From Planctomycetota bacterium (GTDB lineage Bacteria > Planctomycetota > UBA8108 > SXIK01): a DNA stretch of 64,000 nucleotides. Location of the stretch: assembly GCA_965223265.1 (NCBI GenBank), contig OZ244999.1:6432001-6496000 (forward strand), written 5' to 3'. Position 1 is the first letter of the stretch; every line of letters starts with the position of its first letter. Positions 11,546 to 59,859 of this stretch are shown here, one piece after another. Below the pieces are notes generated by a model. It saw only the letters and a list, made by a program, of their open reading frames with translations, searched no databases and was not told the origin of the DNA. A program made the position numbers and the translations under genes.

Positions 11546-11621
11546 TGGAGCCACCTACCCGACTCGAACGGGTGACCTGTTCATTACGAATGAACTGCTC
11601 TACCAACTGAGCTAAGGTGGC
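11546..11621 (-). tRNA. tRNA-Thr(CGT) with encoded CCA
   Basis: Reverse complement reads GCCACCTTAGCTCAGTTGGTAGAGCAGTTCATTCGTAATGAACAGGTCACCCGTTCGAGTCGGGTAGGTGGCTCCA: cloverleaf, anticodon loop TTCGTAA, TTCGA T-loop. Confidence 0.97.
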
Positions 11622-52047: not shown

Positions 52048-52713
52048 ATGCGAACGCTCGCATTTTGGCTCGTCGCTTTACCACTTTTCAGCTGCGCGAG
52101 CTACCAGACGCTCGATTTGCCTCGTCGGCCAGCCCACACTTTCGCGAACCGCCAGGTGCAGCACGGTTTCGTTATGGCGGCCGAGCTTCTTCTTGAACCA
52201 GAGGAAAGAGCGCACCAGTTCGGGCCGCAGCTCCAGGATCTCGGCTACTTGCCGGTGCTCGTTTTCCTTGAGAACAACGGCGCGAGCAGCTTCGAAATCT
52301 CACGCCAACACTGCGAACTCCTGCTCGAAAACGGCGACAGGCTCGGACCGACGCCGCCGCTCACAGTCTACCGGCAACTACAGAAATCCTTCGTGCCGGT
52401 TGTCTTTCTCGGCCCCCTCGTCCTGCCGCCAATCGCGCTCTACCGACACCTCGAGACTTACAACCACGACTTGGCGCGTGACGTCTTCACGAAGGCTTTT
52501 CCCGCAAGCCTGCGCTTGCAGCCCGGCGATCCTCCACAAGCCTTCGCCTTCTTCTTTCGTGACCCGGATCATCGATTGCAGAGCGAGTTTCTCAGCTCGG
52601 TCTTGACGGCACGTGTCGAGCAGGAAGGCCGGCGTGAGGCAAAGAGCGACTCGAACGCCGTCGGCCGCACGCTGACGTTCACGATCTCACTCTACACGGA
52701 AGGAATGAGATGA
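52048..52713 (+). CDS. Putative lipoprotein
   Basis: Signal peptide with LFSC lipobox-like motif. Confidence 0.7.
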   Translation: MRTLAFWLVALPLFSCASYQTLDLPRRPAHTFANRQVQHGFVMAAELLLEPEERAHQFGPQLQDLGYLPVLVFLENNGASSFEISRQHCELLLENGDRLGPTPPLTVYRQLQKSFVPVVFLGPLVLPPIALYRHLETYNHDLARDVFTKAFPASLRLQPGDPPQAFAFFFRDPDHRLQSEFLSSVLTARVEQEGRREAKSDSNAVGRTLTFTISLYTEGMR

Positions 52714-54518
52714 ACCTGCGCGCCATATTTTCCCTACCGATCGTCATGCTCGCCGTGATCTGCCTCCGGTGCGCTGCACCGCTAGCAGTCGACAGCACGA
52801 CGCCCTACAAGCTTGGACTCGAGGCGCTGGAACGAAACGACCTCGGCGCTGCGATCACCCAGTTCACGCTCGCCATCGAGAAATCCGAGAACGTCTTCTT
52901 TACAGCGGCGTATCTCAAGCGGGGCGAATGCTATCTACAGCGCACGCTGAGCTCGGCTCCCGACAACGTGCGACACGAAACCATTCAACGCGCCCTTGAC
53001 GATTTCGAACGCGTCCTCGGTCAGTCCGAGTTGAGCGTCGGAGAGCGAGCTAGATCGCTCTACCTTCAAGGCGAAGCGCACCGAAGAGCCGGAGAGATCG
53101 ACCCGGCGATCGACTCTTTCCACCAGGTTCTTCAGCTGCCTGTCGCAGAAGAGACAACGCAGGAGAGACTCCGGACGCACACGGTACTCGGAAGGATACT
53201 ACTTGAAAGCGCGTTGGTGTCTTACGACGCTCATGGACTCTCAGAACAGACCGCGGACACTCTGCGGCGAGCGCAGCGCGAATTCGCCGCCGGACTGAAA
53301 ATCGATCCGAACGAACCATTCTGCAATCGCGGCAAAGGGATTTGCCTTTTCTACCTCCGCCAGCATGGACACGCCGTTGACCTTCTCGAACGGTCGACGC
53401 AATTGAGTGAGCAGCAGGGCCAACGCAACCCCAGGGGGCACTTCTATCTGGGGCGGGCACTTGGCGCCTGGCGTGGCCCCCAGCTCGCCGCGCTGGAGCA
53501 CTACCGGAAAGCACTCGCGCAGGATCGTGATCGCAAGTTCACACGCCTCTACCGCCACTTGATTGACGTTATCGAAGACTACGTTCCGTTCGACACCCAA
53601 GCCGCGCTGTTCGAGAAGATGTTCGAAGAGCTCCTGCTTTACGCGGGCGAGGACACAGAGTATTGGCGTCGCGTCGAAGCTCGCACGAACGAAATGATCG
53701 CTTCAGACATCGAGGGTAAAAAGCTTCTGGGTCGCTATGGACGCGCGCTCGCTCGAGCGCGCCAAGGCAAAATCGAAGCCGCGGTCGACGACTCGATCGC
53801 GCTAGCGGCGGCATCGCCACAACTGTTTTTGACACGGCTGAAATCGGTTTTCTCGCCGCCCACACCGCTACTGCGCGACCACTACGGGCGAGGGCTGACC
53901 CTGTACAGGACCGGACGGCACGAGGAACTCGACCTTCTGTACCGCGAGGAGCTTCCGGAGCTCGTCACCAACGGCGTGGACGTCGCTGAGAAGGGTCGTT
54001 ATTACTACCTGCTGCGCCTGCTTTACGGGCGCAACATCGTTGAACTCTGGCGCCGGAGCGAAACGAGCGGCGAAGAGGTCCTGCTCCCGGAAGACCATGC
54101 TCCCCTCGAGGAGGCAAAGGCAGCGCTCAGATCGTATCTGACCGAGCACGAAAACGATCCACAGGTGCGCCTCGATCTCGGCGACGTTGAAGAGATTCTG
54201 AAGTCCTACGTCCAGGCGTACACGCAGTACGATCTCGTGATCGCGTCGCAGCCGGATCACACCGAGGCCTTTCGCCGAGTCCTACGACTGCACCGCGATG
54301 GCCTCCTTCAGCAACTCGACCACGCGCGCGCCTGGACAACGCTGAAGTCGTACCGCGGCGAAGATCCGGAGATTGTTGGCTACATCGCGCAGGTGAGCGC
54401 CCAGATCGAAACGAAAAGCCGCCATAGCTGCCGCCGCTGTGGCCATCAAGGACAAGCGAACGAGGACATCTGCCAAGCCTGCGGCAGGCGCTTCGTCCAG
54501 CGGACCCCGATGCCGTGA
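52710..54518 (+). CDS. TPR-repeat exported protein with C-terminal zinc ribbon
   Basis: ATGA overlap with upstream gene, signal peptide, TPRs (AYLKRGECY..ALDDF), terminal CRRC-x10-CQAC. Confidence 0.8.
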   Translation: MNLRAIFSLPIVMLAVICLRCAAPLAVDSTTPYKLGLEALERNDLGAAITQFTLAIEKSENVFFTAAYLKRGECYLQRTLSSAPDNVRHETIQRALDDFERVLGQSELSVGERARSLYLQGEAHRRAGEIDPAIDSFHQVLQLPVAEETTQERLRTHTVLGRILLESALVSYDAHGLSEQTADTLRRAQREFAAGLKIDPNEPFCNRGKGICLFYLRQHGHAVDLLERSTQLSEQQGQRNPRGHFYLGRALGAWRGPQLAALEHYRKALAQDRDRKFTRLYRHLIDVIEDYVPFDTQAALFEKMFEELLLYAGEDTEYWRRVEARTNEMIASDIEGKKLLGRYGRALARARQGKIEAAVDDSIALAAASPQLFLTRLKSVFSPPTPLLRDHYGRGLTLYRTGRHEELDLLYREELPELVTNGVDVAEKGRYYYLLRLLYGRNIVELWRRSETSGEEVLLPEDHAPLEEAKAALRSYLTEHENDPQVRLDLGDVEEILKSYVQAYTQYDLVIASQPDHTEAFRRVLRLHRDGLLQQLDHARAWTTLKSYRGEDPEIVGYIAQVSAQIETKSRHSCRRCGHQGQANEDICQACGRRFVQRTPMP

Positions 54519-54816
54519 GACGCCCACCTCGAGGCGAACACTGCGTCTGGGCGAAAAAAAAGTTCGACCCGGAAGGGGGGAGAATCCCGTGTGGGAAACA
54601 GCTCCGGGACGAACCTTGTCCAGACCGTTGAAGTCGCGCCTCGTCGGAGCATCACGACGTCAGCGATCCGGTGCACCGAGCTCATCGAGAATCGGTACTT
54701 TTTGTAATCTTTCTCGTCGTTTGTGCCGTTCTTATTCTATAGTCAGTGGAAGTGTTGTCTACCTCTACTCGTTGGGCTGACGAGTAGTTGCGCACGATTC
54801 GTTAGGACTTAGAAAG

Positions 54817-55581
54817 ATGTCAGACTTCCGTTCGGTGCTCGTCGTTACCGCTGCGTTACTTTCCAGCTGTTCGCCGGCCTCTCAAACCCCCGCCGCGAAA
54901 CCTCCTGGGGGCGACCAGACAGGTCAACCGGCGACTGATTCCAGCCCGAGCGATGGCTCGGCTCTCGCAAAACTTGAGGCAGACGTCCTTGGCACTGAGG
55001 CGACCAAGACGATGACCGAGTCGGCGGCACCGCCGACGAGTCCGCCGGCGCCTGAAACGCCGCCCCCCCCTGCGGGCGAGGCGAATCGTGATGCCTCTGA
55101 TGCCTCGAACGCCGCAGCTGCGTCCACGATCAACGACGCCACAGGAACCGACGCACCACCTCCTGCGCTCAGCGAAGCGGAGGCGGAGAAACTGATCGCA
55201 TCGATCGGCGAGCAAGTCGGCGCTGCGATTCGCTCGACCGATCGCGAAGAATTCGACGCACTGTTGATCAAGCCCGACGAGCTCTCCGAGTCGATCGTCT
55301 CCGGCTACCGTTCGATTCTCGGCAATACGGTGATCGAGCAGAATCGAGTCGTCGCCGACCGGCTCTTTGAGGTTCTGAACGGCCGGACGGTGGAAGCTGT
55401 CAAGTGGCGGCCAGGATCGCTCTCGGTGACGCGACCAGGAGCAGCCTTCGTGCCAGGACGACGTCATATCTCGGAGTCACGCGCACTCGTGACGGTCGAT
55501 TCCGTGCACGTCGTCGTAAAAATCGACACTCTGCTTGAGGTCGGCGGCGCCTGGAAAATCTTTCGCGTCTCACTACCGTAG
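54817..55581 (+). CDS. Putative lipoprotein with Pro/Ala-rich linker
   Basis: LSSC lipobox, low-complexity linker, C-terminal domain ending GAWKIF. Confidence 0.7.
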   Translation: MSDFRSVLVVTAALLSSCSPASQTPAAKPPGGDQTGQPATDSSPSDGSALAKLEADVLGTEATKTMTESAAPPTSPPAPETPPPPAGEANRDASDASNAAAASTINDATGTDAPPPALSEAEAEKLIASIGEQVGAAIRSTDREEFDALLIKPDELSESIVSGYRSILGNTVIEQNRVVADRLFEVLNGRTVEAVKWRPGSLSVTRPGAAFVPGRRHISESRALVTVDSVHVVVKIDTLLEVGGAWKIFRVSLP

Positions 55582-55714
55582 AGTCGTCGTGGAGTTTCTG
55601 TGGGATTTCATGATGGGGGCCTCGACGCCCGACCATGGAACAGCCACCTAACCCGCGTCCCAAAAGACACTTAGCGCCATCTCGATAGAGCCTCAGCTAG
55701 CCGCAACTGTGCCC

Positions 55715-55743
55715 TTGACAGGCAACGCGCAGGTGAGTATATT
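55715..55743 (+). promoter_or_regulatory. Near-consensus sigma70 promoter
   Basis: TTGACA-N17-TATATT. Confidence 0.8.
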
Positions 55744-55750
55744 AGGCTCC

Positions 55751-55925
55751 ACTGTCGGCGCACTCGCACTGCGAGTCGGTGACGCCAAAGCGGGCAACCG
55801 TCCGAGATCGTCGCGATTCTCGGTGTCCGAGGCGGCCCGTCCGGCATCTGACAACACTCGAAAAAAGCTTTTCTCTTCACTTCTTTTCTAAGGGCGTCTT
55901 AACTCCTCTGAGACGTCCTTTTTTT
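55751..55925 (+). ncRNA. Candidate structured small RNA (about 175 nt)
   Basis: Bounded by the promoter above and an intrinsic terminator; nested complementary segments; no credible ORF. Confidence 0.6.
55890..55925 (+). terminator. Intrinsic terminator
   Basis: AAGGGCGTCTT-N9-GAGACGTCCTT followed by T run. Confidence 0.8.
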
Positions 55926-56009
55926 ATTTCGAGTGCCTTGTCTTGTTGTGGTTCGCACGCCGAGGCTGCGTCTACAGGGGAGAAGGTGGAGCCGCCGATC
56001 GTGGCATGC

Positions 56010-59000
56010 TCACCGCGCCGTCGCGGAAGTGTTGTGCACGCGTGAGTGCGCCACCCGACTGCACCAGCCGAACTGCTCCTGTAGTGCTGGGCTCAGCTGT
56101 CCCTTGATCGTCGCCGTGATTGCCGCCGCGCGCTCCTGGTAGCGGCGTGAGGCGTCGTCCTTGCCGCGATCGGCATAGACCACGGCAAGTGTGGAGAGGA
56201 CCTCCCACTGCAGCCGAGGGCGACATCTCGATTCGGCTCCATGGAGCGCCTGCTCGAGCGCATCGATCGCACGCACGAAGTTGCGGTGAGGATTCCGGCC
56301 GCTCGCCTCAATGCTGCCAAGCAAGTGGAGAAGGTCTCCGAGCAGCGGACGAAGCTGGCACACACGTGCGATGTCGATCCCCTGACGGGCCGACGTGATC
56401 GCCGCTGCAAACTCGCCAGCGTGAAACTGAAGCCAGCCACGCTCGAGAAGTAATCCGCAGCGTTCAACCGGCTGCCCCAAGAGGCTGCAACAGCGCTCGG
56501 CCAACCCGAGCTCCTGCTGTGCAGAGTCGCATTCACCACCGCTCTCCGCCATCCGCACTATGACGCGCCGCGCCGCGAGCTCAAGCTCACGGTTGCTGGC
56601 GCCGGCGTTGAGGGCCAGCGCGGAACGCGCGACAGACAGCGCCGCAGCCGCTGCCCCGATACCGCCAAAGTACTCCGCGAGGGCGAGGAGAGCGAGGGCC
56701 AGCGCCGAAGCTTCACCGCTCTCCAGGGCGATACGAAACCCTCGGAGTGCGTAGGTGTGAGCCGAAGCGAAGTCGGCGTGTTCGACGAGCACGCCGGTTG
56801 CCTCGCGATAGGCCTGCAGGACGATCATCCTCTCGGGAACGCGGCCGATACCGGACAGCCCTTGCTCAATTCTATTGAGCGAACTGTCATAGTCGCCGGT
56901 CAAGGCATCAATGCGTCCCATACGCATCAAGCTCCGTGCTCGCAGGCGGCCCCCCTCAACAGAGCCGACATCACGCGTAGCAGATCTGCACACTTGCCAG
57001 TAGACATCACGCGCTTCGCTGAGCTCGCCAGAATCGTCCAACAGCTTGGCGTAGGCAAAACGCTCGCTCAGCTTAATGCGGCCACGAGAAATCTTCTTTC
57101 GCAGCGAGGTGATCTCCCGTTGCCGAACGGCGGCGTCGTGAGGTTGTTCTGACGCCTCAACCCTGACGCTCCGCCGGCACCAATGCTCAACAAGCTCACG
57201 AGCGGTGGCTCCGACGGCACTGAACTGACCGGCCTGCAACTCGCACACGACCACTAAGCTGCGCACCTCGTCGAGCGCCTCGTCGTCTCCCAGGTCGCGC
57301 AAGGTGTCCGCCGAGTGACGAAAATAGGAGAGGGCCTGAAGCAGCTGCCCACGCTCACGCCAGAAACAGCCAAAGGCGTGATGCGCCTGCGCCAATACGT
57401 GGCGCGAGCCACTTTCGATCGCCGCATTCTGCATCTCGCGCAAGAAGCTCTCGGCGTTGTCCCAGTCGCCGCTCGCTTTGTGAAACTGAGCGGACTGGAG
57501 CAAGGCTTTCACATAACCCAAAAAATTCGCATGGCGGCGGCGCTGCTCCAGAAAAGTTTTCTCGCCGCCCGACGCCCCGTCCTCTACTAACCACTCGACC
57601 TCTACCGCCTGACCGAGTGTGTAGGCGGCACCGAACGCATCGTGTTCTGCAAGTTCCTCGTTCGACAGGAGCGGGCGTAGCTCGTCAAAGATCGTGCGAC
57701 ACTTGATATCATCTCCCGCCTCGTGGAACGCTTTCGCTTTTGCGGTCAAGATCCTCAGCCTCTCGGCCTCGTGTTCTATCTCGACACTTTCGAGACACTG
57801 GAGTCCCGCGTCGTACTCGCGCTGGCAGACTTCCCCGTCGCTGAGCGACGCGCGCAGATCACCGATCCAGAGGTGCAGTCGTGCCTTCTCCAGTCCGCGC
57901 GGCACCAACCTGCGAAGCTCCTCGTACTGATCAATAGCTTCTCGATGTCGCCCGCTGGCGTGCAAGGCACGGGCGTATCGAAGTCGCCAGACGTCACCAG
58001 CGGCGCTATCGTGGCTCGTCGAGGTGACCATGGAATCCAGCAGTTCAATGGTCTCGTCAAGACACCCCAGTGTCTGGAGGTACGAAATCGCGAGAGAAGC
58101 AGTACCCTCGACATCAACCGGCAAGCGTGTTCGCAGGAGATGGCGTAGGGCATATGGCCACAGGCGTGGATCGTCTGCGGCTTCGAGGGCGAGAGCCGCG
58201 GCCGCTCCGGCGTCAATCAACTCCCGGTCGTTGGAGGGAATCGACTCGGCGATCGTCGAGGCAATATCCGACGCCACGATGCCGAACTCGGTGTAGGTGA
58301 CGGTCCCCGCAGCTCTCTGCTCGATCGCCCAACCGAGCTCACACAACCTCTCGAGGACTGATTTCGAGTCAAAGCTCTCGAGCTGCAGCTCGAGAGCGAG
58401 TTCGGCCGCTTCTTCGTCGCCAAATCCCGTGGCCTCGAAGAGAAGATTCGCGGATACAGGACGTGCCAAGACGGCGAGCACCTCGATCAATTTGCGGACC
58501 GTGGGAGGCGTGCGCTCGAGGCGCTCACGGACAAGGTCGCCCAGCTCGACGGCCGCATCGCCGCGGTCACCCGAATCCTCACGCTCCGACCAACCGCGCA
58601 GGAACCACTGGATGGTTCGGACATGCCCTCCACATGACCGCATCACACTTTCACGCGTCCCTACCGGTAGATCCTGCTCCAAAACATGCCGCGCGAGACC
58701 ATCGAGGTCACTACGCGAGTAGCCGCGCGCCACGACTTCAAAGGAAGTCAGAGAGTCGAAGTTCCTCCAGAATGCGTCGTCGAACCCCTCGACACTACAG
58801 CCGTCGGGCATGCCGATCACCAGTAACATTCGAGGCATGCGGCGACGCTGACGGCGAAGAGCCAACATGCGGAGGAGGTGGTCAAACACCCGCCGTGAGA
58901 ACACGTCCATGTTCTCGAAATCTTGAACGATCACAACCATGGCCGTCGAAGCAGATGCCTCGAATAGCGCCCTGGCAACCGCGTCGACAAGCCGCAAGTT

Positions 59001-59480
59001 GTCGAGCTCAAAGCCGAGAGAAGGGAGGGGGACCGATTCAGAACTTAGGTCGACGGTAACTCGGCTCAACTCACTGGCCACGGACGTGGACAATCCGGCG
59101 TCCGGACCATCGCCGTCGTCTGACTGCTCCGATGCTTGACCTTTTCTGATCGTTTCGAGATCAACGAGCTGCCGCATGAGGTCGCCGACAACACCCGGTG
59201 ACGGCGAGTCACAGACACTTCGCGCACAAAGAGCCTGAAGTCCAATGTGATGACAGAAGTCTCGAAACGCCTCGAACGTCTCGGCCTGTCCGCAGCCGTC
59301 ATCGCCTCGTAGAATCCCGACACAGCGTGATGGGCCGGGGCCGCCTGTAAGCTGCGACAGCCATGCGTGCATGCCCTCCAGCAGCAGTCGAAACTCTCGC
59401 CGCGGTACACGTGGGTCCGTCGTGCGGTGGGATGCGGTGTCGACTGACTGCTGTCGACTGGATGGTGATGCGCCTTGCAT
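56010..59480 (-). CDS. Large STAND/AAA_16-like ATPase-TPR protein with degenerate Walker motifs
   Basis: ILRGDDGCGQAE, VVIVQDFENMD, RSCGGH (GxP-like), LAVLARP winged-helix region, long TPR-like C-terminus. Likely ATG 59480 after AGGAAGG (track start 59618). Confidence 0.7.
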   Translation of the reverse strand: MQGASPSSRQQSVDTASHRTTDPRVPRREFRLLLEGMHAWLSQLTGGPGPSRCVGILRGDDGCGQAETFEAFRDFCHHIGLQALCARSVCDSPSPGVVGDLMRQLVDLETIRKGQASEQSDDGDGPDAGLSTSVASELSRVTVDLSSESVPLPSLGFELDNLRLVDAVARALFEASASTAMVVIVQDFENMDVFSRRVFDHLLRMLALRRQRRRMPRMLLVIGMPDGCSVEGFDDAFWRNFDSLTSFEVVARGYSRSDLDGLARHVLEQDLPVGTRESVMRSCGGHVRTIQWFLRGWSEREDSGDRGDAAVELGDLVRERLERTPPTVRKLIEVLAVLARPVSANLLFEATGFGDEEAAELALELQLESFDSKSVLERLCELGWAIEQRAAGTVTYTEFGIVASDIASTIAESIPSNDRELIDAGAAAALALEAADDPRLWPYALRHLLRTRLPVDVEGTASLAISYLQTLGCLDETIELLDSMVTSTSHDSAAGDVWRLRYARALHASGRHREAIDQYEELRRLVPRGLEKARLHLWIGDLRASLSDGEVCQREYDAGLQCLESVEIEHEAERLRILTAKAKAFHEAGDDIKCRTIFDELRPLLSNEELAEHDAFGAAYTLGQAVEVEWLVEDGASGGEKTFLEQRRRHANFLGYVKALLQSAQFHKASGDWDNAESFLREMQNAAIESGSRHVLAQAHHAFGCFWRERGQLLQALSYFRHSADTLRDLGDDEALDEVRSLVVVCELQAGQFSAVGATARELVEHWCRRSVRVEASEQPHDAAVRQREITSLRKKISRGRIKLSERFAYAKLLDDSGELSEARDVYWQVCRSATRDVGSVEGGRLRARSLMRMGRIDALTGDYDSSLNRIEQGLSGIGRVPERMIVLQAYREATGVLVEHADFASAHTYALRGFRIALESGEASALALALLALAEYFGGIGAAAAALSVARSALALNAGASNRELELAARRVIVRMAESGGECDSAQQELGLAERCCSLLGQPVERCGLLLERGWLQFHAGEFAAAITSARQGIDIARVCQLRPLLGDLLHLLGSIEASGRNPHRNFVRAIDALEQALHGAESRCRPRLQWEVLSTLAVVYADRGKDDASRRYQERAAAITATIKGQLSPALQEQFGWCSRVAHSRVHNTSATAR

Positions 59481-59859
59481 GGTTCCTTCCTGAGCCAGCC
59501 CCTCTGCTAACACTTCGTCCAGACACGAAGTGAGCTCGCAAGAGTTTCCTAGGCTTCCCGTCGGGCGCGGCGATCCGACCAAGAAAGATACAACGCGGCG
59601 AAAACAGCTGCCATCCACCCCAGAGTCAGCGCACGAGCGCTATCGGCCATCAAAGCAATACTATCGGCCGTACGAACGTCCTGTAACGCGTAGTTGTGTC
59701 GTCGCGTTTGCAAAGTTCTGCTGGCGGTATAGATTTCTTCGTCCGTGTTGCCGTCCATGCGTTGGGTAATAACTCGACGACAATCGGTCGATACACGGAG
59801 AAGGCTCTTCGCACTTCGCTGGAGAAGCCCCGCCCCCCCGCTAAGAGGACCCGCATAGG

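Follow-up and report, generated by a model that had tools for sequence, protein, structure and literature searches.

Does the gap between two convergent genes of a Planctomycetota bacterium hold a gene for an RNA of its own, and what might such an RNA do? The question arose within a window, by which we mean the whole stretch of 64,000 nucleotides that was analysed, in which an earlier note made from the letters alone had placed a stand-alone structured RNA between a promoter and a terminator and had suggested that it acts in trans through an unpaired pyrimidine tract. The reading that we favour, with about even confidence, is that the locus encodes an independently transcribed, trans-acting and Hfq-independent sRNA of about 175 nt, which would pair with purine-rich elements of dcw mRNA and would found a new family. 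The features on which the argument turns are the following, in coordinates of the window.

55715-55743, plus strand: sigma-70-type promoter, 11/12 consensus positions, with a predicted start at about 55750-55751
55751-55846, plus strand: variable 5′ structured domain, GC-rich and with two hairpin units in the minimum-energy fold of the source genome
55847-55867, plus strand: purine/A-rich linker CTGACAACACTCGAAAAAAG, mostly unpaired in the fold
55868-55889, plus strand: invariant CU tract CTTTTCTCTTCACTTCTTTTCT, 22 nt, the proposed seed
55890-55925, plus strand: terminator hairpin and T-run, with arms at 55890-55901 and 55909-55920 and the loop ACTCCTC at 55902-55908
54817-55581, plus strand: conserved neighbour, a 254-aa lipoprotein-like protein, adjoining the RNA gene in 19/24 loci
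56010-59618, minus strand: conserved neighbour, a 1202-aa TPR-repeat protein (TPR_12 and TPR_2 matches), convergent with the RNA gene here

Both transcription signals named in the earlier note are where it had put them. The promoter, TTGACA-N17-TATATT, is one of two promoter-like sites in 54500-57000, a region whose shuffles give 0.3 ± 0.7. The hairpin at 55890-55920 forms 12 pairs around its 7-nt loop before the T-run that ends at 55925, and it is the sole terminator-like site in the same 2.5 kb; shuffles yield 2.0 ± 1.5 such sites, so the hairpin alone is not significant. Folding of 55751-55925 gives −63.9 kcal/mol on the plus strand (z = −2.8, with 1/200 shuffles equally stable) and z = −1.5 on the minus strand. 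The nested pairings that had been proposed within this stretch survive in part: ACTCGC/GCGAGT, GCGGGC/GCCCGT and CCGAGA/TCTCGG belong to the minimum-energy fold, as does ATCG/CGAT except for one pair, GACGCC/GGCATC is only partly formed, and the closing stem TGTCGG/CTGACA is absent. What places the feature beyond chance is its conservation, not its fold.

That conservation is concentrated at the 3′ end. When 60 relatives were searched at the DNA level, matches were confined to the final ~60 nt, comprising the CU tract, the hairpin and the T-run, which are 95-100% identical in 23 genomes from four families. In an alignment of 25 sequences, the region that runs from the CU tract to the end of the hairpin is invariant at most columns, among them positions 16-32, which form the TCTCTTCACTTCTTTTCT core; one relative carries a second copy of the gene with changes in the stem. 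A covariance model of this 3′ module, run on 58 other genomes of the same class, found strong matches in 23 of them: two of three in family f1, all 14 in f2, all three in f3 and all four in f5. It found none in f4 (0/5) or f7 (0/1), and among the 28 genomes of f6 there was one weak match (E = 0.0035) that is better explained as a second RNA family. Outside the class, a 151-genome sample of the phylum gave a single weak match (E = 0.007). An exact 24-nt word of the module, sought in a species-representative collection covering 185,579 species, occurred on 24 contigs, all from Planctomycetota and all corresponding to the same places as the loci already found in relatives. As far as these searches reach, the RNA does not extend beyond four families within a single small class of Planctomycetota.

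The hairpin was also examined for covariation. Standard pairs fill 100% of the 276 hairpin pair cells in the alignment, one pair is changed on both sides (UA to AU) and five are changed on one side; with this one compensatory pair, the covariation score of the hairpin was matched by 23/500 shuffles. Covariation in the hairpin is too sparse for proof of structure. Its sequence is near-invariant across families, and the fact that both stem and loop are held in this way points to a further constraint beyond pairing, perhaps a protein.

Upstream of the module, the 24 loci carry 45-175 nt of unrelated sequence, which in every case forms one hairpin or more close to the predicted 5′ end, and the linkers of relatives are A-rich with differing sequence. 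The 5′ domains have no 6-mer in common other than at the start of the CU tract (the most frequent one is found in 5/15 representatives), and hence no conserved fold or ligand pocket. As the 5′ sequences of homologues are unrelated, the elaborate 5′ fold of the source genome is best seen as a local solution, and the emphasis that the earlier note had laid on it does not hold.

The surroundings of the gene argue that it stands alone. A promoter of the form TTGACn-N16-18-TAnnnT is kept in 24/24 loci, from 24 genomes, at 45-175 nt upstream of the CU tract. The neighbours in the source genome, where the RNA gene is present in a single copy, are convergent, as the earlier note had described. The TPR protein has a homologue beside the RNA gene in 9/24 loci; the more frequent neighbour, the 254-aa protein, gave no family match in Pfam or NCBIfam and has an N-terminus that reads as lipobox-like. 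The commonest arrangement has the TPR gene upstream and co-directional and the 254-aa gene convergent. The RNA gene is reversed between these two genes in the source genome and in one other genus, so that there the conserved neighbour lies upstream and the next downstream gene converges too. This inversion relative to the flanks in two genera argues for a unit of its own, and inversion together with the conserved promoter argues that the element is not a 3′ UTR, a leader or a mere terminator. The RNA gene is predicted to be its own transcription unit, independent of the flanking genes: it has its own promoter and a putative Rho-independent terminator and lies outside the neighbouring mRNAs, the layout generally expected of a trans-encoded sRNA. 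The claim of a stand-alone unit is borne out by the retention of promoter, CU tract and terminator in 23 relatives as well as by the inverted loci. A cis-regulatory leader or riboswitch, which the earlier note had already thought unlikely, was rejected: in the source genome the next gene along is convergent, 17/24 loci have their conserved downstream neighbour on the opposite strand, and the terminator is invariant and looks constitutive. A 20-nt motif, TGTGAAAAAATTGTGGAATT, lies upstream of the −35 element in one genus, where it occurs at the RNA gene only in 4/4 genomes, bar one site with three mismatches; it was not found in one genome of another genus, and it was rejected as a general promoter element. 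In relatives, TGTGRAA direct repeats spaced 11 nt apart lie upstream of the −35 element and are candidates for control of the promoter.

No described family accommodates the RNA. Rfam 15 gave no match at the gathering score in 55550-56050, and in the whole 64-kb window it recognised a single element, the tRNA at 11549-11621. With the threshold relaxed to E = 10, the locus matched LhrC (19.8 bits, where the gathering score is 110) and Yar_3 (11.2 bits, where it is 50), an insect lncRNA fragment, and nothing else, so that the cmscan-type check gives no confident assignment, in keeping with the earlier statement that the family was not recognised. Membership of LhrC (RF00616) was rejected, as the match has E = 1.8 and aligns the CU tract and terminator only. 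LhrC, RoxS and RsaE of Firmicutes are pyrimidine-rich, Hfq-independent sRNAs that pair with purine-rich mRNA regions, and the LhrC model asks for UCCC motifs in loops and in single strand. The RNA described here resembles these sRNAs in its unpaired C/U-rich stretch and C/U-rich terminator loop, LhrC being the sole Rfam likeness; it differs in that its tract is U-rich with few C and lacks UCCC or CCCC motifs, and in that it has a single long tract in place of several short motifs. Literature searches, within the collection covered, brought up no paper on an RNA of this kind, and the terms sRNA, small RNA, non-coding and riboswitch are absent from a 2025 review of the Planctomycetota (PMC12673574). 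We regard the RNA as a real, conserved and previously undescribed sRNA family of one planctomycete class.

Traces of transcription come from relatives. Nineteen RNA libraries contained a few words of the window. In three of them, metatranscriptomes of soil, seawater and marine sediment that come from separate studies, there are contigs of 181, 230 and 186 nt that carry 56-63 nt of the module at 100% identity within unrelated flanks. These contigs continue for 35-137 nt beyond the T-run and thus do not fix a 3′ end, and they may reflect DNA carry-over; they lend weak support to transcription of the module in relatives. Gaps in the coverage of the window by these RNA runs carry no information. 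As a separate observation, one run of the organism's own study contains the module joined to other flanks, which means that the assembly breaks there.

With which mRNAs could the CU tract pair? The best non-self match of the module in the 18.4-Mb source genome, at 6202490-6202527, scores 52; the next score 35, 34 and 31, and only four non-self hits genome-wide score at least 30. The match is on the plus strand, and its complement falls on the minus-strand dcw transcript, which comprises mraZ, rsmH, an 88-aa ftsL-like ORF and a class B penicillin-binding protein gene, within the 227-nt spacer between rsmH and ftsL. Pfam recognises the MraW methylase and the dimer and transpeptidase domains of the penicillin-binding protein, and the genome family search recognises MraZ; the 88-aa ORF has no family match and is called ftsL by position alone. 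The main site lies 150-190 nt from the ftsL-like start, away from its ribosome binding site, and a second short site, GUGAAGAGAAGUGAAG, is found ~50 nt before that start. Neither the source mraZ leader nor the mraZ-rsmH spacer has a site (scores 15 and 13), and the dcw loci gave no Rfam match. The similarity in the source genome continues through the hairpin, which leaves open that the dcw spacer arose as an antisense copy of the RNA gene, since decayed, and is no selected target. The source genome has no FtsZ/tubulin match, a lack that lends interest to any regulator of the dcw genes that remain; the absence of FtsZ is stated for the whole phylum in the 2025 review (PMC12673574).

We fetched the rsmH locus from 29 relatives, of which 22 bear the RNA and 7 do not. 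Complement-strand local scores of at least 24 (24-35) occur in 18 of the 22 RNA-bearing loci, and of at least 30 in 13, as against none of the seven genomes without the RNA (scores 17-20, maximum 20) and 16-23 in the same-sense control, counts that carry with them a search for complementarity as the means of finding the sites, one genus supplying 9/22 loci and shared ancestry among the relatives. Four RNA-bearing relatives stay below 24 by alignment, two of them with incomplete upstream sequence. By duplex energy, 20/22 RNA-bearing loci reach −25 kcal/mol or better, compared with 0/7 without the RNA, and the two failures have incomplete upstream sequence; of the four low scorers, G001 and G012 attain −28.6 and −29.3 kcal/mol only via wobble-rich or gapped pairing. 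Among 30 shuffled CU-rich seeds the best come to between −26 and −31 kcal/mol, so that shuffles too can arrive at energies of −25 to −29 kcal/mol, and only 10 loci beat all their shuffles.

The position of the site varies with the lineage. In f2 and in one f1 genus it precedes mraZ by ~200-300 nt; in f3 it follows rsmH immediately (with four GUGAAGAG repeats before the ftsL-like ORF in one f3 genome); and in f5 it falls in the last rsmH codons, for EEVKRN, where the match may be a coding coincidence. When an 18-nt degenerate complement was scanned across 10 whole genomes, four had their sole extra perfect match in the dcw locus, one further had a non-dcw extra perfect match and a dcw match at two mismatches, and five had no extra perfect match; allowing mismatches in the source genome, the whole-genome search gave no complementary site within five mismatches of the 26-nt tract or two of a 17-mer. 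One genus has a structured mraZ leader, with 7 pairs changed on both sides, that includes a complementary element and a terminator-like hairpin ~65 nt before mraZ. The RNA thus combines a conserved seed, predicted to be unpaired, with target sites conserved in 18/22 loci and in 0/7 without the RNA, a pairing that is generally looked for in trans-acting sRNAs. The claim of a trans-acting sRNA with the CU tract as its working part agrees with the invariance of the tract and with these predicted dcw sites. The narrower suggestion, that the tract could pair with purine-rich ribosome binding sites, needs correcting: the complementary partners with most support are long purine-rich elements of dcw leaders and spacers.

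Other candidate partners in the source genome were set aside. The site ranked second, at 7361766-7361847 with −33.8 kcal/mol, precedes a gene for a secreted TPR-like protein by ~200 nt and proved uninterpretable; the match at 6998709 is on the sense strand of a long ORF, whose mRNA lacks the complement; and a 17-nt perfect complement at 1076904 sits in a low-GC stretch with no clear gene downstream.

A second likeness bears on what the tract might be. The CU tract and the first hairpin bases, TCACTTCTTTTCTAAGG, are identical at 15/17 positions to the 3′ end of the source 16S rRNA, TCACCTCCTTTCTAAGG. The single 16S gene ends ...GGATCACCTCCTTTCTAAGGA, and the counterpart in the sRNA is TTCACTTCTTTTCTAAGGG; the two differences are C-to-U changes inside CCUCC, giving CUUCU, and the likeness extends four bases (AAGG) past CCUCCUUUCU. 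Only four sites in the whole genome come within two mismatches of the sRNA 17-mer, namely the RNA gene, the 16S end, the dcw spacer and one other. Composition-matched shuffles reached 15/17 in 7 of 20000 cases for the whole module and 1 of 20000 for the CU part, figures that are indicative only, as the likeness was noticed before the test. Unlike the 16S tail, the element in the sRNA is carried by a small transcript that has a promoter and a terminator to itself. It is possible, though in our view unlikely, that the RNA is a ribosomal-tail mimic turned regulator, a free copy of the 16S tail with CCUCC softened to CUUCU that would compete with, or substitute for, the ribosome's tail at long purine-rich elements of the dcw transcript. 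Were this so, it would form, with the second RNA family, a lineage-specific layer coupling ribosome or growth status to envelope growth and division.

The same C-to-U copy of the tail at 15/17 positions also suits a global anti-Shine-Dalgarno-like repressor, whose CU tract and CUCCUC loop would occupy many purine-rich ribosome binding sites, as U pairs with both A and G, with insertion-sequence transposase genes and murA among the targets and dcw just one of many. An energy scan finds dozens of Shine-Dalgarno-like sites with energies between −26 and −30 kcal/mol, several of which end in AUG, and since so many pair nearly as well, the principal target may be another than dcw. A DDE transposase gene present in 3-4 copies begins with GGAGUGAAGAGAUCAUG, a murA-like gene of one relative has a site over its start codon, the source murA 5′ UTR is purine-rich up to the ATG, and the weak LhrC likeness shows the same layout of CU tract plus terminator. 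Shuffled CU-rich seeds give similar energies, however, and the long stretches of conserved complementarity (20-47 nt) are peculiar to dcw loci, at some distance from ribosome binding sites, so that a global repressor seems to us an improbable account. We are somewhat more doubtful that the RNA works chiefly by binding protein, serving to titrate, as sponge or decoy, a factor specific for pyrimidine-rich single strands or for the 16S tail, with pairing secondary. Candidates for such a factor include ribosomal protein S1, cold-shock or KH-domain proteins, Era, YbeY and hibernation factors. The near-invariance of the single strand and of the hairpin stem and loop exceeds what a terminator or seed needs, the 16S likeness includes the AAGG that follows CCUCCUUUCU, and the second RNA family keeps a CUUCAYUUCUU...AAGGGCG layout. 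Against this, both C-to-U changes hit the CCUCC core that tail-binding factors and mRNAs read, the neighbouring genes encode a TPR protein and an unknown lipoprotein-like protein and link no candidate to the RNA, and the conserved complementary elements in dcw loci are left unaccounted for.

That the locus holds no RNA gene at all, and is instead a bidirectional terminator, a protein-binding DNA site between convergent genes or a short protein gene, we consider very improbable. Its position between convergent genes, where the hairpin could end both transcripts, and two open frames that cross the module (55709-55891 and 55779-56045) are what such an account has in its favour. A terminator or DNA site would have to contend with the consensus promoter kept in 24/24 loci at variable distance, with the inversion of the whole unit in two genera, with a T-run on one side only, the upstream A-run not being adjacent to the hairpin, and with the better fold of the plus strand than of the minus strand. 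As to a protein, the 3′ module lacks synonymous-type changes and is conserved at every base with no third-position pattern, which rules out a small protein, and the upstream lengths are not multiples of three. A short protein or DNA-only element was accordingly rejected on promoter, inversion and conservation pattern.

Our preferred reading, pairing in trans with dcw mRNA, has a precedent in another phylum. StsR of Rhodobacter sphaeroides pairs with the dcw 5′ leader RNA UpsM, leading to RNase E cleavage; UpsM is made by partial termination in the dcw 5′ UTR, with which StsR also pairs (PMC8266604). The parallel lies in a trans-encoded sRNA predicted to pair with a non-coding part of the dcw transcript, in the one genus whose mraZ leader combines the complementary element, covarying structure and a terminator-like hairpin before mraZ, and in the RNase E/G gene of the source genome. 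The differences are that the two RNAs share no sequence relationship, that the site here moves among the mraZ leader, the rsmH end and the rsmH-ftsL spacer, with the source genome having its site in the spacer only, that the organism has no FtsZ match and that pairing here is predicted only. No Hfq match (PF17209) was found in the single-contig source genome, in a search whose control matched 5/14 reference genomes; an Hfq-dependent sRNA was rejected on this result.

From the StsR/UpsM precedent and the element-bearing, structured mraZ leader comes our proposal that the CU tract pairs with the leader or a spacer of the dcw RNA. The working part would be the invariant 3′ module, that is, the single-stranded 22-nt CU tract and the terminator hairpin with its CUCCUC loop, and the variable 5′ hairpins would probably only stabilise the 5′ end. 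The tract would base-pair, without Hfq, with purine-rich mRNA elements, located in the rsmH-ftsL spacer in the source genome and in the structured mraZ leader or just after rsmH in other genera. Pairing may then act on processing (by RNase E or RNase III), on termination within the leader, or on how ftsL and the genes downstream, including ftsI, are translated, and so would tune envelope growth and division. What the comparisons show is the conservation, the arrangement of promoter and terminator, the independence of the flanking genes, the lack of an Rfam match, the complementarity and its co-occurrence with the RNA gene; where the transcript begins and ends, that pairing takes place in vivo, which way regulation runs and which nuclease acts are inferred.

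The RNA may not be alone of its kind. The second RNA family, located at 3920551-3920629 of the source genome and found in 27/58 genomes of the class, has the layout CUUCAUUUCUU...AAGGGCG followed by a terminator, and this shared layout suggests a wider group of pyrimidine-rich RNAs in the lineage. Taken with the likeness to the 16S tail, it hints that pyrimidine-rich regulators form a broader class in this lineage that is still unexplored. Next to nothing has been described of regulatory RNAs in the Planctomycetota, and a strongly conserved, single-copy sRNA with a specific predicted link to mraZ, rsmH, ftsL and ftsI, in an organism that appears to have a complete genome, would offer a concrete entry point to the control of division in these bacteria.

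A second small-RNA-like unit, related to the small RNA (sRNA) encoded at window 55751-55925, lies elsewhere in the organism's own genome (G000), outside the window, and is made up of CCAUUUCUCCUUUUACUUGCUUCAUUUCUUACGGAAGGGCG, a terminator hairpin and a T-run, in that order.

G000 contig 1, 3920551-3920629, + strand (positions 1501-1579 of the surrounding stretch, L158): second small-RNA-like unit

Its core of about 45 nt, at 85-100% identity, is present in 27 of the 58 other genomes of the class that were compared, spread over families f1 (3/3), f2 (13/14), f3 (3/3), f4 (4/5) and f5 (4/4, with two to three copies), and in none of the 28 genomes of family f6. Near this unit is a 25-nt stretch rich in G-runs and resembling CGAAAGGGTAGGGTTGGGGTTGGG, for which there is another such stretch in the same genome and more than 20 class genomes have 92-96% identical matches at other loci.

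L158 1437-1461 (G000 near 3920487): G-run-rich 25-nt stretch, CGAAAGGGTAGGGTTGGGGTTGGG-like
G000 6766685-6766709, - strand: G-run-rich 25-nt stretch, CGAAAGGGTAGGGTTGGGGTTGGG-like

Other sites outside the window are complementary to the sRNA's CU tract. The start regions of multi-copy elements are complementary to its 5′ half; one type encodes a DDE transposase (Pfam), and the 448-aa protein of the other had no family match.

G000 1199649, 2216609, 6120077 and 7615331: element type 1, GUGAAGAGAAAGGACAUG, four copies
G000 2380704, 2456771 and 4180769: element type 2 (the transposase type), GGAGUGAAGAGAUCAUG, at least three copies
G000 7361766-7361847, purine-rich on the - strand: purine-rich stretch

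The last of these ranks second by energy of pairing with the CU tract (-33.8 kcal/mol), contains the complement of AAGGGCGUC and lies within an extended intergenic region, some 200 nt upstream of the 370-aa open reading frame for a secreted TPR-like protein. On the plus strand, this site resembles another decayed copy of the module, the conserved 3′ part of the sRNA that comprises the CU tract and terminator. In sequencing run X22, from the organism's own study, the module (window 55869-55928) is joined in contigs to two or more flanks other than those seen here. Further genomes or copies carrying the module are therefore present in the sample, and the assembly breaks where the module lies.

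The region upstream of the organism's own mraZ, also outside the window, has a promoter-like TTGACA-N17-TAAACT about 115 nt upstream of the gene, followed by several GTGG-containing repeats, which resemble MraZ operator repeats.

G000 about 6204476-6204600, - strand: mraZ upstream region

Within the window, the Rfam search returned a single match, a tRNA gene, and the RNA gene has two genes for large TPR-repeat proteins in its vicinity, of which the one encoding 1202 aa is a conserved neighbour.

Window 11549-11621, - strand: tRNA gene (Rfam, 66.8 bits)
Window 52710-54518, + strand: large TPR-repeat protein gene
Window 56010-59618, - strand: large TPR-repeat protein gene, 1202 aa

Many relatives carry two TGTGRAA-like direct repeats, 11 nt apart, before the sRNA promoter; the organism's own genome has no clear copy at window 55655-55714.

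Relatives' sRNA loci (L002-L024), between 10 and 45 nt before the -35 hexamer: TGTGRAA-like repeat pair, for example CTGTGAAAAAATTGTGGAATTC

In all four genomes of one genus, the 20-nt form of the repeat occurs only at the sRNA gene, save for one site with three mismatches. The repeat pair is possibly an activator site.
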